A stretch of DNA of 64,000 bases. Origin: Alphaproteobacteria bacterium (GTDB lineage Bacteria > Pseudomonadota > Alphaproteobacteria > UBA2966). The position numbers and the translations under genes were made by a program. The DNA lies in NCBI GenBank assembly GCA_965200265.1, contig OZ241357.1, forward strand, positions 2,519,816 through 2,583,815, written 5' to 3'. How positions within the stretch are numbered: the stretch's first letter is position 1; every line of letters begins with the position of its first letter. The notes beneath the pieces are model-generated. The model worked only from the letters and a program-made list of their open reading frames with translations, did no database searches and had not been told where the DNA came from. This document shows positions 18,126 through 38,197 of this stretch, piece after piece.

Positions 18126-19001
18126 TCACGGGTCGGGCGTCCAGCGGCAGCCGTCCGCGGTCCCGGTCACGAAGCCCGCCGTCGGGGCGGCGAAGTGCGC
18201 CGGGAACACCTTGACGCCGGTGTCCGCGTGGCGTTCCACGAACGCCTGCCGCGTCGCCGCCGACCTGGGCGGATCGATGCAGGCGGCGCTGTTGACGTGG
18301 GGCATCGCGCACTGGATGGGGTGGTGTATCAGGTCGCCCGTCAGCACCGCCTCGGCGCCGCGCGATTCGAGGCGCACCGAGCAATGGCCCGGCGTATGCC
18401 CCTCCGAGGGTTCGAGCCATATGGAGTCGTCCAGGGCGTAGTCGCTCGCCACCTTCACGGCGTTGCCGGCCTCGATCACCGGCAACACCGAGTCGCGGTA
18501 CCCTTGCCAGTGATTGCCGTCGTCCTCCGGGATGGCGGAGAACCATTCCAGGTCCTTTTCCGAGAACAGGTACTTGGCGTTGGGAAAGGTCGGCGTCCAT
18601 TCGCCGTTCTCGAGCCTGGTGTTCCAGCCCACGTGATCCCCGTGAAGATGCGTGCACATGACGTAGTCGACCTCTTCCGGAACGACCGCCGCCGCCGCCA
18701 GCTCCCGGAGGAAGCGGTCGTCGTCGCGCATGTTGAAGATGGGCCGGGCTTCCCGGCTCTTGTGATTGCCGATGCAGGTGTCGACCACGATGGTGTGGCG
18801 TTCGGTCCGAAGGACGAAGGCGTGGAAACTGAACCTGACCTGCCCGATGCCGTAGTCGAAAAAGTACGGGTCGAGCCAGTCGCGATGGGCGTCGAAGTCC
18901 TCCTGGGAGAGATCGGGGAACAGCCCCTGGTAGCGGAACTCGGTGCCCTCCAGTTCGACGACGCGCGAGATCTCGATATCGCCGACCGACTTCTTCTTCA
19001 T
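18126..19001 (-). CDS. MBL-fold metallohydrolase
   Basis: HxHxDH motif (THLHGDHVGW) plus downstream His/Asp ligands; 291 aa. Confidence 0.8.
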   Translation of the reverse strand: MKKKSVGDIEISRVVELEGTEFRYQGLFPDLSQEDFDAHRDWLDPYFFDYGIGQVRFSFHAFVLRTERHTIVVDTCIGNHKSREARPIFNMRDDDRFLRELAAAAVVPEEVDYVMCTHLHGDHVGWNTRLENGEWTPTFPNAKYLFSEKDLEWFSAIPEDDGNHWQGYRDSVLPVIEAGNAVKVASDYALDDSIWLEPSEGHTPGHCSVRLESRGAEAVLTGDLIHHPIQCAMPHVNSAACIDPPRSAATRQAFVERHADTGVKVFPAHFAAPTAGFVTGTADGCRWTPDP

Positions 19002-19342
19002 CGTCCACGCCTCCCTTTCGCCGGGTCCGGCGATCCGGCCGTGCGCCGATCCCGGAACCGGATTGTAGAGGCCGGATCGCGGACGCGCCAGACGGTGTCC
19101 TCGTTTCCCCGGCCGGCAAAGGCTCCGTTTCCCCGGGAGCGCCGGCGTCCCGCCGGCATGGCGGGTCGAAGGCCGTCCTGGCCGACGCCGGGATCAAGGA
19201 GGCGCGGAGGGCCGAGATGGCGCTCCGGGCCGTCCGTGCGGAGATCACGAAGGACGAAGACGCCGACGCGGAGCAGGACCCGGCCGGTGCTGGGACGACA
19301 CGAGGGACGGCTTCGAGGAGCCGCCCTTTCTCTTGGCGCGGG

Positions 19343-19651
19343 CTACGAAGGAAACAGATTGATGAGAGCTACAACGATGCCGCCGAAGGAGCCAAGGATG
19401 ATGCCGGCGATGATGCCGGTTTGAACCCACAAGGCGCGGTAGAGATCGGCCTTGGTGGCCATCTTGTCTTCGAGGCGGGCTATATCCACCTTGAGGCGGG
19501 CTATATCCGCCTTCGTGGCGATGACTTTGACGACATGATCGCGGGCGGCTTCGGCGTGCGCTTCGGCCTGGGCGTCGTCGACGCCGGCGTCCTTGAGGCG
19601 CCGCGCATAGGACAGCGTATCGAAGCCGGGGGCTGTATCCGTATAGGCCAT
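19343..19651 (-). CDS. Small tail-anchored coiled-coil protein (DUF1640-like), copy 1
   Basis: MAYTDTAPGFDTLSYARRLKDAGV...ATKADIARLKVDIARLEDKMATKADL... heptads followed by the C-terminal TM helix GIIAGIILGSFGGIVVALINLF; internal Met start chosen. Confidence 0.6.
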   Translation of the reverse strand: MAYTDTAPGFDTLSYARRLKDAGVDDAQAEAHAEAARDHVVKVIATKADIARLKVDIARLEDKMATKADLYRALWVQTGIIAGIILGSFGGIVVALINLFPS

Positions 19652-20082
19652 GCGGGAAACGCTACGCCGCGGCCGGGGGGGCGTCAATGGCCGGGGAGCC
19701 GTCCCCGTACGCCGTCCGGGCAGCATGAGAACGTCTGCCTGGCGCCCCGGACGCGCGGCAACCCGGAGCAGAACCCGGACTTTCGAGGGGCCGGGGCGTG
19801 CGATTCCGGAACCGGATCGGGGGCGCGCCAGACGGTGTCCTCGTTTCCCCGGCCGGCAAAGGCTTCGTTTCCCTGGGAGCGCCGGCGTCCCGCCGGCATG
19901 GCGGGTCGAAGGCCATCCTGGCCGACGCCGGGATCAAGGAGGCGCGGAGGGCCGAGATGGCGCTCCGGGCCGTCCGTGCGGAGATCACGAAGGACGAAGA
20001 CGCCGACGCGGAGCAGGACCCGGCCGGTGCCGGGACGACACGAGGGACGGCTTCGAGGAGCCGCCCTTTCTCTTGACGCGGG

Positions 20083-20370
20083 CTACGAAGGAAACAGATT
20101 GATGAGAGCTACAACGATGCCGCCGAAGGAGCCAAGGATAATGCCGGCGATGATGCCGGTTTGAACCCACAAGGCGCGGTAGAGATCGGCCTTGGTGGCC
20201 ATCTTGTCTTCGAGGCGGGCTATATCCGCCTTCGTGGCGACGACTTTGACGACATGATCGCGGGCGGCTTCGGCGTGCGCTTCGGCCTGGGCGTCGTCGA
20301 CGCCGACGTCCCTGAGGTGCCGCGCATAGGACAGCGTATCGAAGCCGGGGGCTGTGTCCGTATAGGCCAT
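20083..20370 (-). CDS. Small tail-anchored coiled-coil protein (DUF1640-like), copy 2
   Basis: Near-identical to copy 1 (R->H, K->R, A->V, I->V and loss of one IARLKVD heptad). Confidence 0.6.
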   Translation of the reverse strand: MAYTDTAPGFDTLSYARHLRDVGVDDAQAEAHAEAARDHVVKVVATKADIARLEDKMATKADLYRALWVQTGIIAGIILGSFGGIVVALINLFPS

Positions 20371-20691
20371 GCGGGAAACGCTACGCCGCGGCCGGGGGGG
20401 CGTCAATGGCCGGGGAGCCGTCCCCGTACGCCGTCCGGGCAGCACAAGAACGTCTGCCTGGCGCCCCGGACGCGCGGCAACCCGGAGCAGAACCCGGACT
20501 TTCGAGGGGCCGGGGCGTGCGATTCCGGAAACGGAAATCGTTTCAAATCAGAACGGGTCCCGGCCTCTCTCGCGTTCGGGTATCCGTCAACTGAACCGTC
20601 CCGCACGGCGAACACGTCCACGGCAATTATCCTCGACCTCGACGGGTGGGAGCGCCGACGCTCCCGGGGACGTGCGGCCCTCAGCGCGCGG

Positions 20692-21000
20692 TCACGTCCG
20701 CTGGAGTTCCGTGACCACGTTCAGGACGGTGATCACGCGGTCCTTCACCATGTCGGCCGTGTCCGAACGGAAGGCCTTCATGTGGGCGGAGTTCATGTGC
20801 GTCTCGATCGCGTCCTTGTCGACGTAGACCTCGTACATGACGTAACGGTTGGGGTCGTCGTCCACGGTGTTCACCTGGAACATCAGGCAGCCCTCCTCGT
20901 TGGCTTGGGAGTCGGCCGAGTGACGGCGGGCGCGGGCGTCGAACGCCTCCTTGCAGGCGGGGTCGATGTCGACCTGGGCGAGAACCGCGACTTGAGCCAT
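20692..21000 (-). CDS. Antibiotic-biosynthesis-monooxygenase (ABM/Dabb) domain protein
   Basis: About 100 aa ferredoxin-like fold signature (VAVLAQVDIDPACKEAFDA...MYEVYVDKDAIETHMNSAHMKAF). Confidence 0.7.
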   Translation of the reverse strand: MAQVAVLAQVDIDPACKEAFDARARRHSADSQANEEGCLMFQVNTVDDDPNRYVMYEVYVDKDAIETHMNSAHMKAFRSDTADMVKDRVITVLNVVTELQRT

Positions 21001-21255: not shown

Positions 21256-22035
21256 GTGGAGAAGAAAAAGAAGGTCCTGGTCATCGTTCCGTTCCCGATG
21301 ACGGAGGAACAGCTCGGGTTCCGGCAGCAGCAGCACGCCTCGCTCGATTTCGGCCCCGACATCGAGTTCGACTACCGGCCGGTCCGCGCGGCGGGCGGCA
21401 ACCTCGTGAGCCCCTACGACTGGTGCATCGGCGACCTCGTGGTTCTCGAGGCGGGCCTCTCCGCCCAGGAGGAGGGCTACGACGCGGTGTGCGTCGACAC
21501 CGTGAGCGATTCCGGCGTCGCCGCGCTGAGGACCGTTCTCGACATCCCCGTGATCGGTCCGGGGCGGGCGTCGTTCCTGCTCGCCATGCTGCTCGGCGAC
21601 AAGTTCGGCGTGCTGGCGATGTGGGAACGCTGGTCCGGGCTCTACAAGAAGACGCTGGAAGAGCTCGGCATCGGCCACAAGTTCGTGGGCGTGCACAGCA
21701 TCGACGCCACGGTCGACAACCGGAACCTGCTCAGCGGCAAGGAGGAGGAGACCTTCGGGCGGCTCGAGGAGGGCTGCCGGGCCTTGATCGACGACTACGG
21801 CGCCGACGTCATCTGCCTCGGGTCGACGTCGATGCATCAGGCCCACGTCCACCTTTCCGAGCGGATACCCGTGCCCATCGTCAATCCCGGTCCGGTGTCC
21901 TACAAGCTCGCCGAGGCCGTCCTCGGACTCGGCCTCACGCACAGCCGCCAGTACTACAAGCCGCCCATCGTGCGGGCCGACGAGACGCTCCGCGCCATGC
22001 TCGACGGCGCGGTCGAGGCGCGGAAGAACGGGTAG
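21256..22035 (+). CDS. Asp/Glu/hydantoin racemase family protein (paralog 1)
   Basis: Two-Cys racemase-superfamily layout (AVCVDTVSDSG ... VICLGSTSMHQ), PIVNPGPVSYKLAE; GTG start preceded by GGGAGA. Confidence 0.8.
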   Translation: MEKKKKVLVIVPFPMTEEQLGFRQQQHASLDFGPDIEFDYRPVRAAGGNLVSPYDWCIGDLVVLEAGLSAQEEGYDAVCVDTVSDSGVAALRTVLDIPVIGPGRASFLLAMLLGDKFGVLAMWERWSGLYKKTLEELGIGHKFVGVHSIDATVDNRNLLSGKEEETFGRLEEGCRALIDDYGADVICLGSTSMHQAHVHLSERIPVPIVNPGPVSYKLAEAVLGLGLTHSRQYYKPPIVRADETLRAMLDGAVEARKNG

Positions 22036-22077
22036 GCCGGCCCCGGCGGGACGGGCCGGCGGCAGAGGAGAGAAGCC

Positions 22078-22842
22078 ATGGCCAAGGCTCTGGTTCTGGT
22101 GCCCTTCGCGCTCGACGAGAGCGGCATCGCCAACCGGCGCGCCCAGCTCGACCACGTCCGCCTGGGCCCGGACATCGCGTTCGACTTCCGCGGCGTCACG
22201 GCCGGCCCGAAGAGCTACGTGAGCCCGCACGACTTCGTGCTGATGGACATGGCGATCTTCGAGGCCGGGATGCGGGCGCAGGACGAGGGCTACGACGCCG
22301 TCTGCATCGACACCATGAGCGATTCGGGCCTCGACGCGCTCCGGTCGGTGCTCGACATTCCGGTGATCGCGCCGGGGAAGGCGGCGATGCTGTTCTGCCT
22401 GACGCTCGGCGAGAAGTTCTCCATCCTCTGTCAATGGGACTACGCCGTCGCGCGGACCACCAAGATGATCCGCGCGCTGGGGCTCGAGGACTTCTGCGCC
22501 GCCGTCGTGAACTACGACGCGCCGCCGGACTACGCCGGCCTGCTCGACGGCAAGGAGGACACGGTCTTCCCCAGGATGAAGGCGGCGTGCGACGAGGCGA
22601 TGGCGGCGGGGGCGGACGTGATCTGCCTGGGATCGACGACCATGCACCAGGCGGCCGAGTACCTGGCCGCGAACCTGCCCGTCCCCGTCGTCAATCCGGG
22701 TCCGCTGACCTACAAGCTCGTCGAGTCCGTCCTCGATCTCGCGCTCACGCACAGCCGCAAGGCCTATCCCAGGCCCCTCGACCCGCGGCCCGGCATGATC
22801 CACGCCATGCTCGCGGCCGGGAAGGCGTCGCCGGACGGGTAG
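22078..22842 (+). CDS. Asp/Glu/hydantoin racemase family protein (paralog 2)
   Basis: Same motif set as paralog 1 (AVCIDTMSDSG ... VICLGSTTMHQ; PVVNPGPLTYKL). Confidence 0.8.
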   Translation: MAKALVLVPFALDESGIANRRAQLDHVRLGPDIAFDFRGVTAGPKSYVSPHDFVLMDMAIFEAGMRAQDEGYDAVCIDTMSDSGLDALRSVLDIPVIAPGKAAMLFCLTLGEKFSILCQWDYAVARTTKMIRALGLEDFCAAVVNYDAPPDYAGLLDGKEDTVFPRMKAACDEAMAAGADVICLGSTTMHQAAEYLAANLPVPVVNPGPLTYKLVESVLDLALTHSRKAYPRPLDPRPGMIHAMLAAGKASPDG

Positions 22843-22886
22843 TCCGGGTCTCCCGGGACGGTCTTGAGAACCATCGGAACGGCCGG

Positions 22887-25358
22887 ATGAAACGAACCGT
22901 CCGAGTTGCGGGGATCTTCGCGGCGGTGCTGGCGTGCTCCATCGCCGCCGGGTGCGGAGGAGGCGGCGGCGGGGCCGGCCCGCAGCAGGCGTCGCGTCAA
23001 CCGGCACCGGAACCGGAGACCACGGAGACCGAAGCGGAACGGGCCGCGCGGGAAGAGGCCGCCCGGCAGGCGGAGGCGGAGCGCGCGGCCCAGGAAGAAG
23101 AGATGCAGCGGCGGCAAATGGAGGAGGACCAGCGAAGGGCGCGCGAGGCGGCACTCCAGCAGGAGCTGGAACGCATAGACAGACTGGACCTGACCGTGAA
23201 CCTGTCGGCGGTCGGCGTCCGCGAGGCTCACAAGAACGTCGTCCGCGCGAGCGGCGGCCCCGTGCCCTTCGGCGCCGACATCACCATCGGCTTCATCGAC
23301 ACCGGCATCGAGCCGACGCACCCCGCGTTCGCCCCCGGCGCCCGGACCGTGACCGAGGAGCCACTGGAAACAGGAGCGGGCGATCCGGCCAGCAGTTTCA
23401 CGCCCCCCGAAAGATCCCCGCCCGGAGGGTCCTCCCACGGGACGGCGGTCGCCAGCGTCGCCGCCGGTGCGGCCCGCAACGTGATTATCGAGTCGCGTAC
23501 CGAGTCGCGGCAAGGCGTGGCCCCCGGCGCGAACGTCAGGATGTTCGCGATCACGCTGGGTTCGGGGGGGGGGGACTACCAGGAAGTGACCTTGGCCGGC
23601 CTGGAGCGCTTTTCACGGAGATTCGGAGGCTTTCTGAGCCACGCCCTCTCCCAAGACGTCGATGTCCTGAACATGAGCCTCAGCGTCTCCGGAATCATCG
23701 ATCATTATTCGGAGGCGGACCTGCAAGGCCGCATGACGGCGCTCGTCAGCGCGGCGGCGCAGGAGGCAAAAGCCGAGAACAAGACGATCCTCGTCTGGTC
23801 CGCCGGCAACCTGCACGGCGACCCTTGTATGAGCGGGCAGGCTTGCGATACCGGGACCAGAAAAGTCGATGCCCGGTCGGTGACCGTATCCGCCGGGCTC
23901 CCGCTGCGTTTTCCGGAGGAGTTGCGCGGCCACTGGATCGCCGTGGCGGCGGTGGACGACGCCGGCGTCATCGCCAGCTTCTCCAACCGCTGCGGGAGCG
24001 CCGCCGGATTCTGCATCGCAGCTCCCGGAGTGGGCGTCCCGACCGCCTATTACGGGTATCACGATCCCAGCGGCGGCGTCGTCATCGGCGAGGGCAGGGG
24101 CAGCGGAACGTCGTTCGCCGCGCCTACGGTGGCGGGCGGCCTCGCGCTCATGAAGCAGCTCTTCCGCGGCCAGCTGTCCAGCGAGGCGCTGGTCGCGCGG
24201 CTGTTCACGACCGCCAACAGGGACGGCCGCTACGCCGACCGGAGCGTCTACGGCCAGGGGCTGATGGACCTCGGCGCGGCGACGGCGCCGGTGGGCGCGA
24301 TGACGGTCGCCGGCGGCGCCTCGGTCGCGGGCGGCGGCGCCAACCTGCGGGAGACCGGCCTCGCGCTCGGGCCGGCGTTCGGCGACGGGCTCGCGGCGGC
24401 GCTGACGGGGCGGGAGATCGCCGCCTTCGATTCGCTGGGCGCGCCGTTCTGGTTCGACCTCGGCGGCCTCGTCGCCGTCACGGACCCCTCCCCCCCTCTC
24501 CTCCTGGCTCGCCGACTCCGCGCGCTGACGGCGCCGGCCGCGCGCCGCTCCGCTTCGGCGCCGGGCTGGACGGCGCTGACCTTCGATGCCGGCGGCGCCG
24601 GGACCGCCGGCGCCGGAGGCCCGCGGATGGGCCTTCTCGGGGCCGGAACGGACGCGCCGCCGGCCGGCCACCTCGCGCTCGCCGACGGCGCCCTCGCCGC
24701 CGCCTTCGATCCCGGCGCGGGGCTCGCCGCGACCGCCTTCACCAACCGCGGCGCGGGCAACCAGCCGCCGGTCTCGGGCGGCGCGCTGTCGTGGCGTGCG
24801 GCCGGCGCGCCGGCGGGGCTCACGGCCGGCTGGCTGACGGAGAGCGCGGAGCTGCTCGGGACCGGCGCGACCGGCGCCTTCGGCAGGCTGGCGGCCGACA
24901 CGACGTTCCTCGGAGTCGACGCGAACCTGGCCGTCGGCCCCTGGGCGGTCTCCGCCACCGGCGAGATCGGGGCGGCGGCGGCGCGCAACCGGCGCGGCGG
25001 CCTCGTCGCCGGCCTCTCGCCCCTGACGACGAGCGCCTTCGCGCTCGACGCGACGCGCCGCCTCGCGGACGGAAGCTCCGTGCGCCTGACGCTGGCGCAG
25101 CCGTTGCGGGTCGAGAACGGCCGCGCGACGTTCTCCGTTCCCGTCGGCCGCACGCGAGGCGGCGCCGTCCAGCGCCGGTCGGTCGTGGCCGGCCTCGAGC
25201 CGTCGGGCCGCCAGATCGACGTCACGGCGCAATGGCGGCGGCCGTTCGCGGCGGGCGGCGACGTCGCGCTCGGAGTCGCGTGGACGCACGCCCCCGGTCA
25301 CGCGGCCGGTGCGAAGCCGGACCTCGCCGTCATGGCGGGATGGCGACTCGCCTTCTGA
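22887..25358 (+). CDS. Lipoprotein subtilisin-like (S8) serine protease with autotransporter-type C-terminal domain
   Basis: Lipobox (AVLACSIAAGC); S8 catalytic motifs IGFIDTGIEPTHPAF (Asp), GHGTAVASVAAG (His), GTSFAAPTVAGG (Ser); Ala/Gly-rich C-terminal half ending ...MAGWRLAF (aromatic C-terminus typical of OM beta-barrels); 11-nt G run at 23564-23574. Confidence 0.8.
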   Translation: MKRTVRVAGIFAAVLACSIAAGCGGGGGGAGPQQASRQPAPEPETTETEAERAAREEAARQAEAERAAQEEEMQRRQMEEDQRRAREAALQQELERIDRLDLTVNLSAVGVREAHKNVVRASGGPVPFGADITIGFIDTGIEPTHPAFAPGARTVTEEPLETGAGDPASSFTPPERSPPGGSSHGTAVASVAAGAARNVIIESRTESRQGVAPGANVRMFAITLGSGGGDYQEVTLAGLERFSRRFGGFLSHALSQDVDVLNMSLSVSGIIDHYSEADLQGRMTALVSAAAQEAKAENKTILVWSAGNLHGDPCMSGQACDTGTRKVDARSVTVSAGLPLRFPEELRGHWIAVAAVDDAGVIASFSNRCGSAAGFCIAAPGVGVPTAYYGYHDPSGGVVIGEGRGSGTSFAAPTVAGGLALMKQLFRGQLSSEALVARLFTTANRDGRYADRSVYGQGLMDLGAATAPVGAMTVAGGASVAGGGANLRETGLALGPAFGDGLAAALTGREIAAFDSLGAPFWFDLGGLVAVTDPSPPLLLARRLRALTAPAARRSASAPGWTALTFDAGGAGTAGAGGPRMGLLGAGTDAPPAGHLALADGALAAAFDPGAGLAATAFTNRGAGNQPPVSGGALSWRAAGAPAGLTAGWLTESAELLGTGATGAFGRLAADTTFLGVDANLAVGPWAVSATGEIGAAAARNRRGGLVAGLSPLTTSAFALDATRRLADGSSVRLTLAQPLRVENGRATFSVPVGRTRGGAVQRRSVVAGLEPSGRQIDVTAQWRRPFAAGGDVALGVAWTHAPGHAAGAKPDLAVMAGWRLAF

Positions 25359-25633
25359 CCGGCTCGGGCGAGAGCCAGGGCAATCGCACTTGAAAACCGG
25401 GGACGCCGTTTGCGAGCCGATTCCCCGCCAAATCGGGCAAGATGAGCGAGGCTTTGGCGTTTTCACCCTTATGTTCGCACTTTGTCTTGCTCCGAATGTC
25501 ACAAGATTCCCACGGAATTTCCAAGTGCGATTGCCCTGGGCGAGAGCGCGTTGACCGGCGCGGCGCGAGAACGTATCTTGCGAGATGGGAACCGCCCGTT
25601 CCGCCGTCGATGCTTCCCGAAGAGGGAGTTGCA

Positions 25634-26182
25634 ATGAAGCACCTGGAGATCAACTGGACCGCCGTCGCCACCGTTCTTACGGGCCTCAGCGTCGTCGTCG
25701 CCCTCGGCGCTCTTCAGTTTTTGCTGACGGAGAGCACGAACGCCCGGATCGACACCCTGCGTTCGGACGTGAACGGGGAAATCCGCACCTTGCGTTCGGA
25801 CGTGAACGGGGGAATCGGTGCCCTGCGTTCGGAGGTGGGCGAGGGAATCCGCACCCTGCGTTCGGAGGTGAGCGGGGAAATCGTCGCCCTGCGTTCGGAG
25901 GTGAGCGAGGAAATCCGCGTCCTGCGTTCGGACGTGAGCGAGGAAATCCGCACCTTGCGTTCGGAGGTGAACGGGGAAATCGGCGCGCTTCGGGAGGAAG
26001 TGACCGGCGAGATCAATTCGCTGCGGTCGAACCTGCGGGAGGAGTCCGCGTCCAATCGAGAGAGGATCAAGGAGTTCGCTCGGGCGACGGCGGCTCTCAT
26101 CATGAAGGTGAACTCCATCGAGGAGAAAATCCTGCCGGAGAGCCGCGCGGACGATGACGCACCGCCGCCCGACGGGGAGTGA
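25634..26182 (+). CDS. N-terminally membrane-anchored protein made of 11-residue tandem repeats (LRSEVxGEIxx)
   Basis: RBS AGGGAG 7 nt upstream; TM helix WTAVATVLTGLSVVVALGALQFLL then about 8 copies of RTLRSDVNGEI-like 11-mers, acidic C-terminus. Confidence 0.7.
   Translation: MKHLEINWTAVATVLTGLSVVVALGALQFLLTESTNARIDTLRSDVNGEIRTLRSDVNGGIGALRSEVGEGIRTLRSEVSGEIVALRSEVSEEIRVLRSDVSEEIRTLRSEVNGEIGALREEVTGEINSLRSNLREESASNRERIKEFARATAALIMKVNSIEEKILPESRADDDAPPPDGE
25752..26040 (+). repeat. 33-bp in-frame tandem repeat array (about 8.5 units) inside the repeat-protein gene
   Basis: Consensus unit ctgcgttcggasgtgarcggggaaatccgcacc repeated head-to-tail with point differences. Confidence 0.9.
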
Positions 26183-26264
26183 GGCGCGGCCGGCCCGGAG
26201 CGACGGGCGACGGTAGGGCCGGAGACCCCCGTCAGCGTCCTGCCCGGAAGGCCGGGACGAGCCC

Positions 26265-27200
26265 CTACCGGGCGCGCTCCCGCTCCGGCGGCGCGTACCG
26301 TTCCTCGAGCGCGGCCACCTCGTTCATCCCCATGAGGCTCAGCATCTCGTCGAAGGCGGGCAGGTCCGCCTCCATGCCGGCCCAGGTTCCCTCCTCCCTG
26401 AGACGGTCGAGGCAGCCCAGCGCCGCACGGATGGCCGACAGCAGGAGCAGGCCGGGATAGATCGCGAGCTTGAACCCGAGCGTCCCCAACTCCCCGGCGG
26501 GCAACAGCGGCGTCTTGCGGCTGGACGCCAGGTTGGCGACCTGGGGGACGCCGAAGGCGCGCCCGATCCTCGCCATCTGCCGCCTGTCCGTCGGCGCCTC
26601 GACGAACAGCATGTCGGCGCCGGCCTCCTCGTACAGGGCGGCGCGGGCGAGCGCCGCGTCGAACCCTTCCACGGCAATGGCGTCGGTGCGGGCGATGACG
26701 ACGAAATCGGGGTCCGTCCTCGCGTCCACCGCCGCCTTGACCTTGGCCACCATCTCCTCCGCCGGAACGAGCTGCTTGCCGGCGAAGTGGCCGCAGCGCT
26801 TCGGGATGACCTGGTCCTCGATGTGGACGGCGGCGACTCCGGCCCGTTCGTAGCTGCGGATCGCGCGGCGGACGTTCAACGGCCCGCCGTAGCCGTTGTC
26901 GCCATCGGCGACGACGGGCAGCCCCGAGGCATCCACGATGCGCGCCGCGTTGTCGACCATCTCCGTCATGGTCAGCAGGCCGACGTCGGGCATCCCGAGA
27001 CGCACGGCCGTCGTCCCGGCGCCGGTCATGTAGACGGCCGGGAACCCCTTGTGGGCGACGAGCCGGGCATGGAAGGGATCCGGCGCCCCCGGCGCCATGA
27101 CGACGTCCGGGCCGGCCAGCAACCGGCGAAAGGCGGCGGCGTTCGTCACGGTCCCGACCTCCCGGAAAGGCGTTCCGGCGACATGGAGCGACTTTACCAC
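26265..27200 (-). CDS. Isocitrate lyase/PEP mutase family protein (carboxyvinyl-carboxyphosphonate phosphorylmutase / 2-methylisocitrate-lyase-like)
   Basis: ICL/PEPM superfamily motifs (GAPDPFHARL, VADGDNGYG, AAVHIEDQVIPKRCGH, FVIARTDA). Confidence 0.8.
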   Translation of the reverse strand: MVKSLHVAGTPFREVGTVTNAAAFRRLLAGPDVVMAPGAPDPFHARLVAHKGFPAVYMTGAGTTAVRLGMPDVGLLTMTEMVDNAARIVDASGLPVVADGDNGYGGPLNVRRAIRSYERAGVAAVHIEDQVIPKRCGHFAGKQLVPAEEMVAKVKAAVDARTDPDFVVIARTDAIAVEGFDAALARAALYEEAGADMLFVEAPTDRRQMARIGRAFGVPQVANLASSRKTPLLPAGELGTLGFKLAIYPGLLLLSAIRAALGCLDRLREEGTWAGMEADLPAFDEMLSLMGMNEVAALEERYAPPERERAR

Positions 27201-27259
27201 CCCCGCTCCGCCCGGTAACGTTGCGTTGCCGCGCGGCGCGAAGGGGGAAGGGACGGCTC

Positions 27260-27949
27260 ATGGAACTCTCGGACAAGACCGCCCGCCGGATGTGGGAGGA
27301 GCTCAAGGCCAATCCGAAGCCGCGTTTCGGTTTCGGCAGGCGGCCGATGGTCGTGAACGTCGACGTCCAGAAGTCGTTCACGCTGGAGGATGAATACACG
27401 TCCGCCTATTCGACGCACCCCAGGCAGATCGACTACATCAACGAGATCTCCGGCATCGCCCGGTCGAAGAACCTGCCCGTCGTGTGGACCTACGTCGCCT
27501 ACATGGAGAACGCCGACGACTGCGGCGTCTGGGGAACCCGGAACGACCACGAGGACGCCCTCCAGAACGTCAAGGTCGGCTCGCGCAAGGCGGAGCTCGA
27601 CGACCGCTGCGACGTCGACCGCGGCAACGATGTCGTCATCAACAAGCGGGGCGCCTCGGCGTTCTTCCAGACGCACCTGCCCTCGCTCTGCGTGTGGTAC
27701 CGGACCGACACCGTCATCGTGACGGGCGGGTCGACCTCCGGCTGCGTGCGCGCGACGGTGGTGGACAGCCTTCAGAGCGGCTACCGCACCGTCGTCCCCG
27801 AGGAGTGCACCTCGGACCGGCACGAGAGTCCGCACTTCGCCAACCTCTACGACATGGCCGCGAAGTACGCCGACGTGATACCGGCCCGGGAGGTGATCGA
27901 CCATCTCAACGAATACGTCCCGGCGAACGACCCGGGAGGACGGTCATGA
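27260..27949 (+). CDS. Isochorismatase-family cysteine hydrolase (paralog 1)
   Basis: MVVNVDVQKSF..., catalytic-Cys region VIVTGGSTSGCVRATVVD; stop overlaps next gene start (ATGA). Confidence 0.8.
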   Translation: MELSDKTARRMWEELKANPKPRFGFGRRPMVVNVDVQKSFTLEDEYTSAYSTHPRQIDYINEISGIARSKNLPVVWTYVAYMENADDCGVWGTRNDHEDALQNVKVGSRKAELDDRCDVDRGNDVVINKRGASAFFQTHLPSLCVWYRTDTVIVTGGSTSGCVRATVVDSLQSGYRTVVPEECTSDRHESPHFANLYDMAAKYADVIPAREVIDHLNEYVPANDPGGRS

Positions 27950-28866
27950 CGGTCAGCGACCCCGGCATCTACGCGTACTCGCCGTACAACGACCGGCCCC
28001 GGATCACGTGGCCGGACGGCGCCCGCGTCGCCTTCTGGGTGGCGCCCAACATCGAGTTCTACGAGGCCCGTCCGCCCGCCAACCCGGTTCGCCAAGACAT
28101 GTCGAGGCCGGCGCCCGACGTCGTCTTCTACGCGCACCGCGACTACGGCAACCGGGTCGGCGTCTGGCGCATGATGGAGGCGATGGACCGTTACGGCGTG
28201 CGCGGCAGCGTGTCCCTCAACGTGGCCGTCTGCGACCATCATCCCGAGATCATCGAGGCGTGCGTCGAGCGCGGCTGGGAGCTGTTCTCCCACGGCGTCT
28301 ACAACACCCGCTACCAGTACGGCATGAGCGAGGCGCAGCACCGCGCGCTCATCGAGGACGCGATCGAGACCATCGACAGGGCGTCCGGCCAGAAGCTGGC
28401 CGGCTGGCTGTCGCCGGCGCTGAGCAACACGGAACGGACGCTCGACCTGCTGGCGGAGTACGGGGTGCTGTACACCTGCGATCTCTTCCACGACGACCAG
28501 CCGCAACCCGTCAAGGTCAGGCAGGGCCGGCTGATCAGCATCCCCTACTCGCTGGAGATGAACGACATCGTGGTCTACCACCAGATCAACTCGAGCCCGC
28601 CGCGCCAGTACACCGAGGTGATCAAGCGGCAGTTCGACCAGCTCTACGAGGAAGGGGCGGAGAACGGCACCGTCATGTGCATCCCGCTGCATCCGTTCCT
28701 CGTCGGCCAGCCGCACCGGGTCGGTCCGTTCGCCGAGGCGCTCGAATACATCACCGGCCACGACGGCGTCTGGGTGACGACGGGACGCGAGATCGCCGAG
28801 TACTACCTCGAACACCACTACGACGACGTCGTCGCGGCCCAGTCCGCCGCCACCGCCGGGGAGTGA
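27946..28866 (+). CDS. Polysaccharide deacetylase (NodB-homology/PuuE-like) family protein (paralog 1)
   Basis: VAFWVAPNIEFYE...HRDYGNRVGVWR...SHGVYN motifs of CE4/PuuE-like fold; 306 aa. Confidence 0.8.
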   Translation: MTVSDPGIYAYSPYNDRPRITWPDGARVAFWVAPNIEFYEARPPANPVRQDMSRPAPDVVFYAHRDYGNRVGVWRMMEAMDRYGVRGSVSLNVAVCDHHPEIIEACVERGWELFSHGVYNTRYQYGMSEAQHRALIEDAIETIDRASGQKLAGWLSPALSNTERTLDLLAEYGVLYTCDLFHDDQPQPVKVRQGRLISIPYSLEMNDIVVYHQINSSPPRQYTEVIKRQFDQLYEEGAENGTVMCIPLHPFLVGQPHRVGPFAEALEYITGHDGVWVTTGREIAEYYLEHHYDDVVAAQSAATAGE

Positions 28867-28870
28867 CGCC

Positions 28871-29794
28871 ATGAGCCTGCCCGACGATTACCTCGAGTAC
28901 CCGATCCGCGGCTACGGGATGGACCACGACCGCTACGGCTGGGAGATCCTGTTCCGCAGGACGCCCGTCGAATGGCCGGGCGGCGCGCGCGTGGCGTTGT
29001 GGATCACGCCGCTGCTGCAATGGTTCCCGATGGACATGGAGACCGGGCCGGTGGCGCCGCCCGGCGGATTCAACCGGCCCTATCCCGACTACCGGAACTA
29101 CTCCCACCGCGACTACGGCCTGCGCGTCGGCGTCTTCCGCTTCTTCAGGCTCTTCGACGCGCTCGGGATCAAGGCGTCGGCGGCGCTGAACTCCGCCGTC
29201 GGCGAGCGCTACCCGGTCGTCGTCGACGAGATCAACCGGCGCGGCTGGGAGGTCATCGCCCACGGCGTGCACATGGGCCACGTGAGCCACGGGGGCATGG
29301 ACGAGAAACTGGAGGCCGGGCGCGTCGAAAGCTGCATCCGGTCGCTGCGCGAGACCACGGGCCAGCCGGTCCGGGGCTGGCTGTCCATCGGCAAGTCCGA
29401 ATCGGACAACACCCCCGACCTTCTGGCCGCGAACGGGATCGAGTATCAGTGCGACTGGTGCAACGACGACATGCCGTACCGCTTCGCGACCGGGAACGGC
29501 GATCTCTTCGCCATGCCCCACACGGTCGAGCTCGACGACCGGGAGGTGCTGCTGCGCTTCCATCACCGCGAGGCGGAGTTCGTGCAGCAGATCAAGGACC
29601 AGTTCGACGTGCTCCACGCCGAGGCCGAGCGGTACGGCGGGCGGATCCTGTCGATCGCCCTGCATCCGTGGGTCATGGGACACCCCTACCGGATCCGTTA
29701 TCTCCGGGAGGCCCTGGAATACGTCCTCGGACACGACGGCGTCTGGCCCGCGACGGGGGCGGAGATCCTCGACGCCTGCAAGGCGCAGGCGTAG
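28871..29794 (+). CDS. Polysaccharide deacetylase (NodB-homology/PuuE-like) family protein (paralog 2)
   Basis: VALWITPLLQWF...HRDYGLRVGVFR...AHGVHMGHV; 307 aa, paralogous to the preceding gene. Confidence 0.8.
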   Translation: MSLPDDYLEYPIRGYGMDHDRYGWEILFRRTPVEWPGGARVALWITPLLQWFPMDMETGPVAPPGGFNRPYPDYRNYSHRDYGLRVGVFRFFRLFDALGIKASAALNSAVGERYPVVVDEINRRGWEVIAHGVHMGHVSHGGMDEKLEAGRVESCIRSLRETTGQPVRGWLSIGKSESDNTPDLLAANGIEYQCDWCNDDMPYRFATGNGDLFAMPHTVELDDREVLLRFHHREAEFVQQIKDQFDVLHAEAERYGGRILSIALHPWVMGHPYRIRYLREALEYVLGHDGVWPATGAEILDACKAQA

Positions 29795-29844
29795 GCGGCG
29801 GTCCACGCTACGAACGAGGCCGGAGCGGCGGAAAGGGCGAACCC

Positions 29845-30522
29845 ATGGAACTCTCGAACAAGACGGCCCGGCAGATGTACGAGGACCTGAAGTCGGCGCC
29901 GCCCAGGCGCAGGTTCGGCTTCGGCCGCAAGCCCATCATCGTCAATGTCGACGTGCAGAGCGCCTTCACGCTCGAGGAGGAGTACGACTCCGCCTATTCC
30001 ACCGATCCCGGACAGATGGCGTACATCAACCAGATCTGCGGAATCGCGCGGTCGAAGGGACTGCCGGTCGCGTGGTGCTACGTCGCCTACATGGAGAACG
30101 GACACGATTGCGGCGTGCGCGGCACCCGCAGCGACGGCCCGACCGCCCTCCAGAACATAAAGATCGGATCGAGGATGGCCGACCTCGACCCCCGGCTGAC
30201 CGTCGACGAGGGCCGCGACGTGATCTACCGAAAGGTCGGCGCGTCGGCCTTCTTCCAGACGCATCTGCCGTCGCTCTGCGTCTGGTACGGCGTCGACACG
30301 GTGATCGTCACCGGCGGCTCGACCTCGGGGTGCATCCGCTCGACGGTGCTCGACAGCGTGCAGCACGGCTACCGCACCATCGTGCCCGAGGAGTGCGTCG
30401 CCGACGTGCACGAAAGCCCGCACTTCCAGAACCTCTACGACATGGCCAGGAAGTACGCCGACGTCGTCCCGGTCGCCGAGGTCGTCGACTACCTCGACGG
30501 CTACGTCCCGGCGAACGGGTAG
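29845..30522 (+). CDS. Isochorismatase-family cysteine hydrolase (paralog 2)
   Basis: MELSNKTARQMYEDL... near-collinear with paralog 1 (IIVNVDVQSAF, VIVTGGSTSGCIRSTVLD). Confidence 0.8.
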   Translation: MELSNKTARQMYEDLKSAPPRRRFGFGRKPIIVNVDVQSAFTLEEEYDSAYSTDPGQMAYINQICGIARSKGLPVAWCYVAYMENGHDCGVRGTRSDGPTALQNIKIGSRMADLDPRLTVDEGRDVIYRKVGASAFFQTHLPSLCVWYGVDTVIVTGGSTSGCIRSTVLDSVQHGYRTIVPEECVADVHESPHFQNLYDMARKYADVVPVAEVVDYLDGYVPANG

Positions 30523-30551: not shown

Positions 30552-31499
30552 TTACAGGAAGAGCACGTCCTTCGCGTACATCTCCATCTTCTCGAGCGCT
30601 TCGCTCAGCGTCGGGCTCAGGAAGTTGAAGTTCAGCAGGCCGACGCCCAACTCGCGAAAGTGCTCGACGTCGCCGGCGATCTCCTCCGGCGCGCCCATGA
30701 ACAGCCGCCGTCCGCCGCCGTCGGCGACCGTCCCCGCGACACCGGCCCAGTTGGCCCAGAACGCCAGCGTGATGGTCGCCGGGTCGCGCCCTTTCTCCGC
30801 GGCCATCGCGTGGAGCCGGTCGACGTTGGCCTTGTACCGCTCGCGCGTGTCCATCCGGTTCCCGGGGTTGGCGCCGAGGGGATACCAGCCGTCGCCGAGC
30901 TCGACGACCCGGCGCAGCGCGGGGTCGCTCTCGCCGCCGACGAATATCGGAGGGTGGGGCTTCTGGACCGGCCTGGGCGCGAAGACGACGTCCGAGAAGC
31001 TCACGTAATCGCCCCGCATGGAGGGACTCTCCCGCGTCCACAGCTCCTTGAAGGCGCGGACGTATTCGTTCGTGACCCGGCCACGCTCGGCGTGCGGCGG
31101 CGCGCCGAGAGCCTCGAACTCCTCCTTCATCCAGCCCGCGCCGACGCCGATCGAGAGGCGGCCGCCGGACAGCACGTCGATGGTCGAGAGCATCTTCGCC
31201 GTCAGCACGGCCGGGCGATGGGGGACGACGAGCACGGAGGTCATGAGCCGCGGCTTCGTCGTGACCGCGGCCGCCCAGGTCACGACCGTGAGCTGGTCGA
31301 GACAGTCGCCGGCCCCGCCGCCGGGCATCTCGCCGGTCTCCGAGTACGGATACTCGAAGGCGTAGGCGCGCGGGATGACGAGGTGGTCGGGGACGGTCAG
31401 ATAGTCGTATCCGAGCCGTTCGCCGCACTCGGCCATCGCCCGGACGCCTTCCGGGTTGGCAAGCGGGCCGCGCGTCGGCAAACCGAATCCGAACTGCAT
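30552..31499 (-). CDS. LLM-class (luciferase-like) flavin-dependent oxidoreductase, paralog 1
   Basis: MQFGFGLPTRGPL...DHLVIPR...GGRLSIGVGAGWMKEEFEALGAP...; TIM-barrel LLM family. Confidence 0.8.
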   Translation of the reverse strand: MQFGFGLPTRGPLANPEGVRAMAECGERLGYDYLTVPDHLVIPRAYAFEYPYSETGEMPGGGAGDCLDQLTVVTWAAAVTTKPRLMTSVLVVPHRPAVLTAKMLSTIDVLSGGRLSIGVGAGWMKEEFEALGAPPHAERGRVTNEYVRAFKELWTRESPSMRGDYVSFSDVVFAPRPVQKPHPPIFVGGESDPALRRVVELGDGWYPLGANPGNRMDTRERYKANVDRLHAMAAEKGRDPATITLAFWANWAGVAGTVADGGGRRLFMGAPEEIAGDVEHFRELGVGLLNFNFLSPTLSEALEKMEMYAKDVLFL

Positions 31500-33769: not shown

Positions 33770-34192
33770 ATGTTCGAGGAGCGGCAGCGGGCGTTTCTGA
33801 ACGGCCGGCGCGTCGGGCGGCTGGCGACGGCGGACGCGGCCGGGCGGCCCCACGTGGTGCCGGCGTGCTTTGCGCTCGGCGCGCGCGGCGTCTACATTAC
33901 GATCGACGAGAAGCCGAAAAGGAGGGCGGGGCAGCCCCTGAAGCGTATCCGCAACATCCTCGAAAACCCTTCGGTGGCGCTGGTCGTCGATCGCTACGAC
34001 GAGGACTGGAGCCGCCTCGGCTGGGTGATGGTGAGGGGTTCGGCGGAAATTCTGGAGAACGGCGACGAGCACGACCGGGCGCAGGCGCTGCTGCGGGACC
34101 GCTACCCCCAGTATCGGCGAATGGCCCTGGAGGACCTTCCCGTCATCGCCATCCGCGCCGAGCGCGTGACGAGCTGGGGGAATCTCGACTGA
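33770..34192 (+). CDS. PPOX-class (pyridoxamine 5'-phosphate oxidase-like) FMN/F420-binding split-barrel protein
   Basis: LNGRRVGRLATADAAGRPHVVPACFAL...VALVVDRYDEDWSRLGWVMVRGSAEIL pattern of the TIGR03618-like PPOX class. Confidence 0.7.
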   Translation: MFEERQRAFLNGRRVGRLATADAAGRPHVVPACFALGARGVYITIDEKPKRRAGQPLKRIRNILENPSVALVVDRYDEDWSRLGWVMVRGSAEILENGDEHDRAQALLRDRYPQYRRMALEDLPVIAIRAERVTSWGNLD

Positions 34193-34230: not shown

Positions 34231-35355
34231 ATGGACATGACGGAAGAACTGAAAATGTGGACGGTCGGGAACGGTGGCGAGGCCGCTCCGGTGAAGCAAG
34301 TGAGGCACATCGAAACCGAAAACCTGCTAGAAAAGACGCTCGTCAAGAACCCGGACATGCTGATACCGGGGTTGAAACTCGTGGGGCGACAGACGCCGAC
34401 CGACGGAGGCTGGCTCGACCTGCTGGGCGTGGACCGGGATGGCCGGCTCGTCGTATTCGAATTGAAACGCGGCAAGCTCACGCGGGAGGCGGTCACCCAG
34501 ATCATCGACTACGCCTCGGACCTCAATGCCATGAACGACAAACAACTGGCGGAGCACATCACCCAACGGTCGGGCCGCGACGGCATAGAGAAGATCGAGA
34601 ATTTCGACGACTGGTACGAAGACTGGCGCGCCCAACATATCGAGGAACCCGACGAGGCGCCTCAGTTACGGCCCGTGAAGATGATGCTTGTCGGTCTCGG
34701 CGCCGATGCCCGAGCTACCCGGATGGTGGACTTCCTGGCGCGGGGCGTGGACATATCGCTTCTGACGTTCCACGGCTACGAACATGAAGGCAAAACCTTT
34801 CTCGCCAGGCAAGTACAGGCGGAGCCGGACCTGACCGAAGAGTTCCGCGGCGGGAAGGAGAGCCGCGAAGAGCGCCGTCGAAAGCGCCGTCGCGCCGTTG
34901 AGGAATTGGCCGAAAATCATGGTGTAAGCGATATATTCAACGAGGCGGTCAGAAGATTCTTGGACTTGGATAGTCGTTATACGCCGCACACTCGTAGGGA
35001 CGGGTATGCTTTCTACGCGGCGCGGTCGTTGACGCTCTCCGGACACGATACAAAATTCAACAGCCCACTGTCGTTGAGGATTACCCGGAACGGAGAGATG
35101 CGCGTGACCTTCTTCCCGGTCTCGGTACATCTCTGCAAGCAGAAATTCCGGGAGGCGACACAATCCAATCCATCCCTGTTCAAATGCGAGCCTCCACCCA
35201 ATGCCCCTCGCACGAACGACGTCCCGGAGCAGTGGTACTGCGTCCTGGATCGGTCGGGATGGGATGAGCACAAGGAAAGACTGTTCGAGCTCGCCAAGGA
35301 CGTCTCCACGGCATGGAACAAGACCGAGCAAGAGGCCGGATCACGGGCGGCGTAA
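34231..35355 (+). CDS. NucS/DUF91-like PD-(D/E)xK nuclease-domain protein with uncharacterised C-terminal region
   Basis: GGWLDLLGVDRDGRLVVFELKRGKLTREAVTQIIDYASDL matches the D...(E)LK core of NucS/EndoMS-type nucleases; remaining about 250 aa unassigned. Confidence 0.65.
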   Translation: MDMTEELKMWTVGNGGEAAPVKQVRHIETENLLEKTLVKNPDMLIPGLKLVGRQTPTDGGWLDLLGVDRDGRLVVFELKRGKLTREAVTQIIDYASDLNAMNDKQLAEHITQRSGRDGIEKIENFDDWYEDWRAQHIEEPDEAPQLRPVKMMLVGLGADARATRMVDFLARGVDISLLTFHGYEHEGKTFLARQVQAEPDLTEEFRGGKESREERRRKRRRAVEELAENHGVSDIFNEAVRRFLDLDSRYTPHTRRDGYAFYAARSLTLSGHDTKFNSPLSLRITRNGEMRVTFFPVSVHLCKQKFREATQSNPSLFKCEPPPNAPRTNDVPEQWYCVLDRSGWDEHKERLFELAKDVSTAWNKTEQEAGSRAA

Positions 35356-38057: not shown

Positions 38058-38197
38058 GTCGTCGTCCCTCGAACCGCAGGCATTCCGGATCGTTCGCACC
38101 CGCATTTATAGCGGATGGCTCCGCGCGTGTGACCAGCCGGTCGGCAAAGGACGGCGAAGCGGTTCCGGCCGAACGGGAACCGCTCTAGATTGGGCGC

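Follow-up and report, generated by a model that had tools for sequence, protein, structure and literature searches.

The DNA examined here, a stretch of 64,000 nucleotides of contig OZ241357.1 (positions 2,519,816 to 2,583,815; assembly GCA_965200265.1) from an alphaproteobacterium of the UBA2966 lineage and hereafter called the window, carries a row of four genes in which two isochorismatase-family amidases, IsoA (27260-27949, + strand) and IsoA' (29845-30522, +), enclose two PuuE-like proteins of the CE4 fold, CE4-B (27946-28866, +) and CE4-B' (28871-29794, +; hereafter, B and B'). As judged from the distribution of homologues, the apparent mirror symmetry of this quartet is the product of an ancient, widespread Iso-B-B' triad and one recent, clade-specific tandem copy of the amidase, namely, IsoA'. 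We propose that the triad is the core of a two-step hydrolytic unit that releases the nitrogen of a small cyclic imide or ureide, a reading to which we assign a probability of roughly 55%.

The linkage of the three genes is far beyond chance. A scan of species-representative genomes with CE4-B produced at least 586 confirmed matches, and its relatives, numbering in the thousands, retain 61-73% identity across phyla. We kept 80 loci, from Alpha-, Beta- and Gammaproteobacteria, Acidimicrobiales, Thermomicrobiales, Gemmatimonadota, Rokubacteria/Methylomirabilota, Bacteroidota and Marinimicrobia (relatives of B also occur in SAR324), and added four that were fetched individually; the window proteins were then mapped onto these 84 loci, all of them from other species, which together span at least eight phyla and include cultured carriers such as Agrobacterium, Rhizobium, Brevundimonas, Caulobacter, Microvirga, Hydrogenophaga and Allopusillimonas. 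Iso, B and B' are collinear in 65 of the 84; another 15 have B followed by B' with Iso on the opposite strand or past the contig end, and four have Iso followed by B, with B' lost to the contig end. B' lies directly downstream of B in 80 loci. The initial annotation had named scattered, unlinked orthologues as the pattern that would speak against a pathway, and this pattern is not what is seen for the core genes, because these are strongly linked across phyla. The triad genes are translationally coupled: the IsoA stop codon overlaps the CE4-B start by 4 nucleotides in the window, and the gap between B and B', also 4 nucleotides there, is a 4-nucleotide overlap in annotated Burkholderia and Comamonas records. 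Fusions of B with B' or of Iso with B were sought as evidence of physical association, and the long open reading frames recovered were out-of-frame read-through artefacts of high-GC DNA.

The second amidase has an altogether different distribution. A second Iso gene was found in none of the 84 loci, and all 74 Iso orthologues from other species are closer to IsoA than to IsoA', which is confined to the window species (L001-L006) and two related lineages (L096 and L097) whose B proteins are 89-91% identical to that of the window. Only in this group is the quartet kept, together with a divergently transcribed PEPM/ICL-family lyase gene and flanking genes for F420-dependent monooxygenases of the LLM family. 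It is this restricted occurrence that leads us to interpret the mirror as a triad with an extra amidase copy, rather than as the systematic doubling perceived in the initial annotation. The divergence of the paralogues differs as well, with 71% identity between IsoA and IsoA' and 37% between B and B', the latter being an ancient, co-inherited pair in which B' has degenerated.

The relationship of B to PuuE is clear at the level of fold. B matches the PuuE structures 1Z7A (E=4e-34) and 3CL6 (E=2e-33) with about 33% identity, a profile of the B family matches the PuuE/BpIH structures 3CL6, 1Z7A and 3S6O over nearly the full length of B (E=1e-39 to 2.5e-40), and B' matches 3CL6 with E=3e-27. PuuE and the closely related imidase BpIH are described, in a passage of PMC11424739 that cites Ramazzina et al. 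2008, as hydrolysing cyclic imides and ureides without a metal, by means of a Glu-His-Trp triad and a second His. More distant CE4-fold relatives, HxnM and an imidase of Pseudomonas putida, are also cyclic imide hydrolases (PMC9304392). When the catalytic positions were aligned with the PuuE structures through the B-family profile, B was found to match the catalytic Asn/Glu and both His residues, and N35, E37, H116, N120, N206, D207 and H249 proved invariant in 77 of 78 B orthologues, the remaining one being truncated at the N terminus. One member of the triad is replaced: the position of the PuuE Trp is occupied by Asn (N120) in all 78. The Pfam model of the polysaccharide deacetylases, PF01522, matches B and B' weakly (36 and 24 bits), the CE4 motif positions in B read N-x-E and S-H-G-x-Y-N in place of an Asp-His-His metal triad, and no signal peptide is evident by eye at the N terminus of B, which looks cytoplasmic. 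A metal-dependent CE4 deacetylase of polysaccharide or peptidoglycan was accordingly rejected as a candidate. The PuuE allantoinase model TIGR03212 is the best among the NCBIfam models for both proteins, with scores of 139.3 bits for B and 116.9 for B' falling well under the cut-off of 424.6, and allantoinase itself was set aside on this account and on that of the active sites, Glu37-His116-Asn120 with His249 in B and Gln50-His131-Met135 in B'. Probably, then, B is a metal-independent, PuuE-like ring-opening amidohydrolase and the catalytic subunit of the pair.

B' presents another facet of the story. Among its 77 orthologues, the counterpart of N35 is Ala, His, Pro, Gln or another residue; that of E37 is Glu in 48 and Gln in 29; that of H116 is His in 52, Asn in 13, Tyr in five and Gly in five; that of N120 is mostly Met; that of N206 is Asp, Ser, Glu or Asn; and that of H249 is His in 44, Thr in 15, Asn in nine and Arg in five. 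Only the equivalent of D207 is Asp throughout (77/77). The Glu and the two His residues occur together in 11 of the 77, at least one of them being missing from the other 66, and the signature of B, N-E-H-N-N-H, is found in none. The window protein, with Q50, H131, M135, D222 and H265, has Gln in place of the catalytic Glu. B' evolves the faster of the two, mean pairwise identity being 50% among its orthologues and 65% among those of B. Given that catalytic residues have been lost in most lineages, B' is probably non-catalytic, and we take it to be, again probably, a partner subunit of B in a hetero-oligomer.

The second enzyme of the triad belongs to a better charted family. IsoA and IsoA' match PF00857 (93 bits for IsoA and 88 for IsoA', the cut-off being 27; E=2e-26 for IsoA) and are assigned by these and the structural matches to the isochorismatase-like cysteine hydrolase superfamily. 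The closest solved structures of IsoA are 4L07 and 4L08 (E=9e-36, about 41% identity), deposited in the PDB under the plain title 'isochorismatase family hydrolase', which we take to be the maleamate amidase Ami of P. putida S16; N-carbamoylsarcosine amidohydrolase follows (E=5e-32, about 38%), as does 3OT4, presumably NicF, over the C-terminal part only (E=2e-17). The catalytic Asp, Lys and Cys positions and the 'DR' motif are kept in the alignment of both copies, the Cys coinciding with the residue mutated to Ala in 4L08; the Asp-Arg motif is presumed to be a carboxylate-binding site. The equivalogs RutB (27 bits against 378), BiuH (30 against 370) and PncA (17-20 against 174) were all rejected. 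The solved relatives of Iso cleave the terminal amide or ureide of a molecule that also bears a carboxylate, which is precisely the type of product that the opening of a cyclic imide or ureide would yield. Ami, NicF and N-carbamoylsarcosine amidohydrolase thus resemble Iso in fold, in the Asp-Lys-Cys positions, in the Asp-Arg motif and at 38-41% identity, and in their own pathways they act straight after a ring-opening or deformylating step. They differ in that Iso reaches no equivalog model and may not be their orthologue, and in that their pathways feature an upstream dioxygenase with a deformylase, or an ATP-dependent hydantoinase, where the module has a CE4 hydrolase. The folds of the module proteins are, on the strength of the matches to solved structures, secure.

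The chemistry downstream of the triad is suggested by its neighbours, which were identified by de novo clustering of flanking open reading frames followed by Pfam and NCBIfam scans and counted in the 46 loci with long flanks. Apart from Iso itself (42/46), the commonest are a homologue of the PEPM/ICL lyase within 10 kb of the triad (26/46, or 57%), LeuC-like (23/46, 50%) and LeuD-like (17/46) proteins, a binding protein of the leucine/isoleucine/valine (LIV) type (16/46) and a flavoprotein of the FAD_binding_2 family (12/46) whose nearest matches are soluble fumarate reductase (E=6e-55) and urocanate reductase. In Agrobacterium, these genes form an operon, Iso-B-B'-LeuC-LeuD-binding protein-permease-permease-ATPase-ATPase-PEPM-flavoprotein, and on a plasmid of Burkholderia plantarii, GntR-LeuC-LeuD-FAD-ICL is divergent from Iso-B-B'-MFS; a PDB search with the Agrobacterium binding protein for a ligand-bound orthologue recovered generic Leu/Ile/Val-binding proteins only, at E=6e-30 or weaker. 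The initial annotation missed the partners that are conserved elsewhere, namely, the LeuCD-like hydratase, the flavoprotein and the LIV-type transporter, none of which is matched in the window, where a search for them returned only a weak housekeeping aconitase match and an unspecific match to an ABC ATPase elsewhere in it. What the window does contain is the lyase (26265-27200, −; the start codon may be at 27200 or 27149), which is divergent from the triad, matches PF13714 with 162 bits (E=2e-47), carries a KRCGH lyase loop (IPKRCGHFAGK) and is, by its profile matches, a member of the lyase branch of the ICL/PEPM superfamily. It is roughly equidistant from PrpB (4e-62), petal death protein (5e-57) and 2,3-dimethylmalate lyase (5e-56; Dml structure 3FA3). 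Methylisocitrate lyase PrpB was rejected as its identity, with TIGR02317 at 275 bits against a cut-off of 354.4 and no prpC or prpD gene adjacent.

A LeuCD-type hydratase followed by an ICL-type lyase is an established means for the disposal of substituted maleates, as exemplified by dimethylmaleate hydratase and dimethylmalate lyase in the nicotinate fermentation of Eubacterium barkeri and by maleate hydratase. The presence of the same two enzyme types beside the triad would imply a dicarboxylate product and, hence, an imide rather than a hydantoin as the substrate, a preference that we hold with moderate confidence and do not regard as decisive. The likeness to the E. barkeri enzymes, a two-subunit LeuCD-type hydratase (DmdAB) and a lyase with a K(K/R)CGH loop (Dml), extends to about half of the genomes; against it, the window has no hydratase, its lyase is equally near to PrpB and petal death protein, and no other genes of the E. 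barkeri nicotinate fermentation were seen. Just past the third of the LLM genes lies a gene of the IPMDH/IDH/tartrate-dehydrogenase family (38198-39325, +) that scores under every equivalog cut-off and is kept in this place in sister contigs; it could oxidise a D-malate-type product, although conservation with the triad elsewhere was not found.

Further upstream of the triad, beyond the lyase gene, the window encodes two racemase-fold paralogues, RacA (21256-22035, +; PF01177 E=2e-29) and RacB (22078-22842, +; E=2e-25), which are 48% identical and, with scores of 103 and 90 bits (cut-off, 31), are assigned to the Asp/Glu/hydantoin racemase superfamily. The best solved structure for RacA is 3QVK/3QVJ (E=6e-13), a 'putative hydantoin racemase' in the PDB that we take to be the Klebsiella allantoin racemase HpxA, with catalytic residues presumably at Cys79 and Cys184; T82 and S190 of RacA align with these two Cys positions, and 16 family members share the motif D-T...G-S-T-x-M-H without exception. 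The initial annotation had likened the pair to maleate isomerase and hydantoin racemase, analogies that are not to be taken at face value because both catalytic cysteines are absent, and the two-base racemases and maleate isomerases (HpxA, HyuE, MurI, MaiA/NicE) were all rejected for this reason. Nor are the paralogues part of a local doubling, as had been supposed. In a metagenome scan that gave 47 loci of the family of at least 8 kb, the RacA-RacB tandem is found in 20, with distinct RacB orthologues at 53-86% identity; the fumarate-reductase-like FAD_binding_2 gene, which often faces away from Rac, is present in 21, a CE4 gene in 15, Iso in 12 and PEPM in eight. RacA and RacB are therefore a conserved, ancient pair within the same gene network. 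Rac lies near the triad in only four of the 46 well-flanked loci. In Comamonadaceae genomes, and in metagenome loci laid out alike, a third B-type paralogue lies directly upstream of Rac; in the genome loci checked, it retains all catalytic residues. HpxA and the hydantoin racemases share the fold of Rac, and the association of Rac with a PuuE-like hydrolase parallels that of HpxA with PuuE; they differ in that Rac has Thr82 and Ser190 instead of cysteines, forms the RacA-RacB tandem and is often divergent from a flavoprotein gene.

The commonest arrangement of the cysteine-less Rac genes is a divergent pair with a gene for a FAD_binding_2 protein that resembles fumarate reductase and has about 465 amino acids (L093, L094, L099 and many of L100-L178). 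At one of these loci, L094, genes for MmgE/PrpD, PhyH, tautomerase, SDR, a LIV-type ABC transporter and GntR are also nearby. Rac together with the FAD_binding_2 gene set looks like a second organic-acid module.

These observations converge on the following scenario. B, a cytoplasmic PuuE-type enzyme with a Glu-His-Asn site, together with B' in a hetero-oligomer, would open a cyclic C-N bond, yielding a carboxylate with an amide (or ureido) group attached; this group would then be hydrolysed by IsoA as a cysteine amidohydrolase, freeing ammonia, and IsoA' may do the same in this clade. The resulting acid would most plausibly be a substituted maleate or succinate, to be taken over by the co-occurring organic-acid enzymes, namely, the LeuCD-like hydratase, the flavoprotein and the KRCGH-loop lyase, of which the window has the lyase alone, and cleavage of a 2-hydroxy-acid intermediate by the lyase would give small molecules of central metabolism. 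As allantoin racemase does for PuuE, RacA and RacB probably epimerise or isomerise the ring substrate or product for a stereospecific CE4 enzyme, and the F420-dependent LLM and PPOX genes might serve as a clade-specific front end that prepares the ring.

The same logic, from cyclic imide through half-amide to dicarboxylate and ammonia, is followed by HxnM and HxnN in the breakdown of nicotinate by Aspergillus (PMC9304392). HxnM has a CE4/PuuE-related ring-opening fold, as does B; it belongs, however, to the HpPgdA/CIH clade and matches B at E=1e-11 only, and HxnN is an amidase-signature enzyme, in contrast to the isochorismatase-family enzyme of the module. The imidase and half-amidase of Blastobacter provide a bacterial example of this sequence of steps. 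We know of no paired pseudo-subunit in either the Blastobacter or the HxnM/HxnN system. PuuE and BpIH, the nearest characterised relatives, have the fold, the length, the catalytic Asn/Glu, the His and the second His in common with B; they are set apart from it by an identity of about 33%, by a TIGR03212 score of B that is a third of the cut-off, by the triad Trp in place of the invariant Asn and by the gene context, no purine-catabolic genes having been seen near B. Furthermore, 3S6O served as the template for a homotetrameric model of the PuuE/BpIH-type enzyme (PMC11424739), whereas B is always paired with its degenerate partner.

Several readings other than the two-step removal of nitrogen from an imide or ureide have to be weighed. 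The initial annotation surmised two parallel enzyme sets, A-B and B'-A', for two related substrates or two enantiomers, and the A-B-B'-A' order, its retention in two related lineages and the catalytic-triad positions kept in both Iso copies are all compatible with this idea. We nevertheless consider it improbable: outside the clade, there is a single Iso per B-B' pair, the catalytic Glu of B' is lost (Gln in the window), 66 of the 77 B' proteins lack one or more of the Glu, His and His, and the split between B and B', at 37% identity, is ancient and universal rather than local. An already known pathway, be it that of allantoin and purines (PuuE with allantoin racemase), the maleamate branch of nicotinate and nicotine degradation (NicF or Ami with maleate isomerase) or the Rut pathway of pyrimidines (RutA, RutB), would draw on the same protein families, and yet this appears very improbable. 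Not only do all the equivalog scores fall short (PuuE, 139 and 117 against 425; RutB, 27 against 378; BiuH, 30 against 370; RutA, 74 against 498; PrpB, 275 against 354), but the nucleophilic Cys on which maleate isomerase and allantoin racemase depend is missing from Rac, and no urate oxidase, allantoate amidohydrolase, 2,5-dihydroxypyridine dioxygenase or N-formylmaleamate deformylase was found among the annotated genes of the window (17-39 kb), the Pfam families precomputed for nine fetched loci or the annotated recurrent neighbour families. None of the allantoin/PuuE, Nic, Rut, biuret and methylcitrate pathways fits the module. In this respect, the initial annotation, which had proposed an amide catabolic pathway that it could not name, is supported for the core of Iso, B, B' and PEPM and, to a moderate extent, for Rac.

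A harder case is presented by a process equivalent to that of the hydantoinases though built from non-homologous enzymes, whereby B would open a 5-substituted hydantoin or another cyclic ureide, Iso would act as an N-carbamoyl amidohydrolase that gives ammonia, CO2 and an amino compound, and RacA/RacB would racemise the hydantoin. PuuE, the nearest characterised relative of B, does open a hydantoin ring, Iso is similar to N-carbamoylsarcosine amidohydrolase (E=5e-32, 38%), the nearest solved relatives of Rac are hydantoin or allantoin racemases, and the three activities taken together are those of the classical hydantoinase/carbamoylase/racemase trio. Still, the commonest partners of the triad, the LeuCD-like hydratase, the ICL-family lyase and the flavoprotein, handle unsaturated or hydroxy dicarboxylates, not amino acids, Rac has neither catalytic cysteine and is near the triad in four of 46 loci, and B has Asn where the PuuE triad has Trp, so that we deem this process unlikely. 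Alternatively, the module could be biosynthetic or detoxifying, for instance, hydrolysing a toxic electrophilic maleimide or processing an intermediate of secondary metabolism. The thiol reactivity of maleimides, the occurrence of the module on plasmids and in many contexts that have nothing else in common, and an identity across phyla high enough to suggest horizontal spread would fit this; set against it, the module often shares an operon with genes for an uptake ABC transporter and for a lyase and a hydratase of the central-metabolism type, and no core families of nonribosomal peptide or polyketide synthetases are among the Pfam families precomputed for the nine fetched loci or the annotated recurrent neighbours, which makes such a role doubtful.

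The proposal that the triad is a nitrogen-stripping hydrolytic unit has difficulties of its own, and they should be stated together. The loss of residues in B' proves neither that it is inactive nor that it binds B. Iso and CE4 are as close to ureide-acting enzymes (N-carbamoylsarcosine amidase, PuuE) as to imide-acting ones, which makes the assignment of the substrate to the imides tentative. In the window, which has neither the LeuCD-like hydratase nor the flavoprotein, the downstream route is incomplete or different, and the pathway in this organism may be truncated or may use genes elsewhere in the genome. Neighbourhoods vary widely between lineages, other contexts of the triad including a molybdenum hydroxylase with amidases, a CoA ligase with acyl-CoA dehydrogenase, Rieske oxygenases and PhyH; the module may, therefore, serve several substrates, perhaps as a shared lower pathway for several heterocycles. 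We know of no precedent for a racemase with Thr and Ser at the catalytic positions. Finally, a full-text search, with incomplete coverage of the literature, recovered the HxnM and BpIH papers only and none on this gene combination, and an earlier characterisation may exist.

With regard to the surroundings, coding frames in the window, which has about 69% G+C, were for that reason picked by GC content at the third codon position and confirmed with Pfam and NCBIfam. All genes named in the initial annotation are present at or near the positions assigned to them, in frames with high third-position GC and with Pfam matches, and the paralogous peptides quoted there are correct; exact matches to the window proteins are found on many metagenome contigs. 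The order described, Iso, CE4, CE4, Iso, with the racemases and the lyase upstream and LLM genes downstream, is likewise right, except that the stretch is not contiguous, unrelated genes interrupting it at two places. Between the racemase pair and the PEPM gene are an S8 subtilase lipoprotein (22887-25358, +; 823 amino acids, its N terminus being of the lipoprotein type and its long C-terminal half rich in Ala and Gly), which is split into two open reading frames in the sister contig L001, and a coiled-coil protein (25634-26182, +) of 182 amino acids with 11-residue repeats (LRSDVNGEIRT...). Close relatives have, in this interval, Sel1, LLM, amidohydrolase and ABC transporter genes instead, the amidohydrolase being similar to 8-oxoguanine deaminase and under the cut-off of that model. 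At the other place, LLM1 (30552-31499, −) is separated from LLM2 (36027-37016, −) and LLM3 (37041-38105, −) by a Septu insertion and by genes for a PPOX-class protein, a NucS-like protein and a Nudix protein (35458-36003, −).

The LLM proteins had been compared to RutA-type monooxygenases; LLM1 and LLM2, the two that were scanned, instead belong to the F420-dependent family TIGR03619 (235 and 248 bits against a cut-off of 167), and the RutA-type FMN monooxygenase was rejected for LLM1 (TIGR03612, 74.5 bits against 498). The paralogues are 50-58% identical to one another (LLM3, 53-58% to LLM1 and LLM2). LLM1 is next to the quartet in L096 and L097 as well, where relatives of LLM2 and LLM3 adjoin F420_oxidored and F420-ligase genes. 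Outside the clade, LLM is near the triad in one of the 46 well-flanked loci and ABM in none, so that neither is a conserved partner there, contrary to what the grouping in the initial annotation would suggest; the links are clade-specific at best. The ABM-domain gene (20692-21000, −; PF03992 E=5e-17) is replaced by FAD_binding_2 genes in a near relative, L099. F420 use is uncommon in Proteobacteria. This alphaproteobacterial lineage is rich in F420-dependent genes: the window encodes three TIGR03619-type LLMs and an F420-dependent PPOX-class protein (33770-34192, +; TIGR03668), to which L096 and L097 add two LLMs, an F420_oxidored-family gene and an F420-ligase (PF01996).

One defence locus and a candidate for a second lie in the same region. 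The Septu anti-phage system (31623-33694, +), situated between LLM1 and the PPOX gene, consists of the PtuA ATPase (PADLOC E=5.5e-114) and the PtuB HNH nuclease (E=1.3e-50), and the site is strain-variable, with a DUF4760 gene and a DDE_3 transposase taking its place in the sister contigs L001 and L002. The NucS-like protein (34231-35355, +; 374 amino acids) has a nuclease domain of the NucS_C type and is matched by PDC-S11, a candidate defence family of PADLOC (E=6e-32), and its gene adjoins the PPOX gene in sister contigs, too. On the far side of the racemases, two tandem units of about 720-740 bp that are 95-98% identical (19072-20520; a repeat of about 730 bp) separate an MBL-fold hydrolase gene (18126-19001, −) from that for the ABM protein, and the sister contig L001 has additional open reading frames of 102 amino acids at this site.

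The general scheme, a cyclic amidohydrolase followed by an amidase, is already known. The module adds to it two unusual features, an enzyme/pseudoenzyme pair of CE4 proteins and a racemase-fold pair with both catalytic cysteines replaced, and it is present in more than 580 genomes at the species level, which range over Proteobacteria, Actinomycetota, Chloroflexota, Bacteroidota and Gemmatimonadota. Its genes are routinely annotated as 'polysaccharide deacetylase' or 'allantoinase', and the names given by PGAP in plasmid records are just as generic ('polysaccharide deacetylase family protein', 'isochorismatase family protein'), while one Rhizobium record bears no annotation; the two-step release of nitrogen proposed here would correct such names. 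Recognition of the module would also provide cultured experimental hosts, namely, Agrobacterium, Brevundimonas, Caulobacter and Burkholderia plantarii, along with defined candidate substrates.

Going one step further, it is conceivable, even if a long shot, that Iso-B-B', together with its partners (the LeuCD-like hydratase, the lyase of the ICL type and the protein resembling fumarate reductase), constitutes the missing bacterial route for the mineralisation of alkyl-maleimides, with an obligate enzyme/pseudoenzyme CE4 heteromer and a cysteine-independent racemase-fold isomerase. The proposed route would lead from maleimide through alkylmaleamate, alkylmaleate and alkylmalate to pyruvate or a 2-oxoacid and a short acid. 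The candidates could include methyl-ethyl-maleimide, methyl-vinyl-maleimide and hematinic acid, monopyrrolic end products of the oxidative breakdown of chlorophyll, bacteriochlorophyll and heme that have been reported in leaves and lake sediments (PMC7318184). Such a route, if real, would explain the abundance of the module and its 61-73% conservation across phyla in marine, freshwater and plant-associated bacteria. Should the substrate not be an abundant natural heterocycle, the module would be one more catabolic operon made of familiar enzyme families; should it be one, such as the pigment-derived maleimides, the triad would fill a gap in the cycling of carbon and nitrogen.

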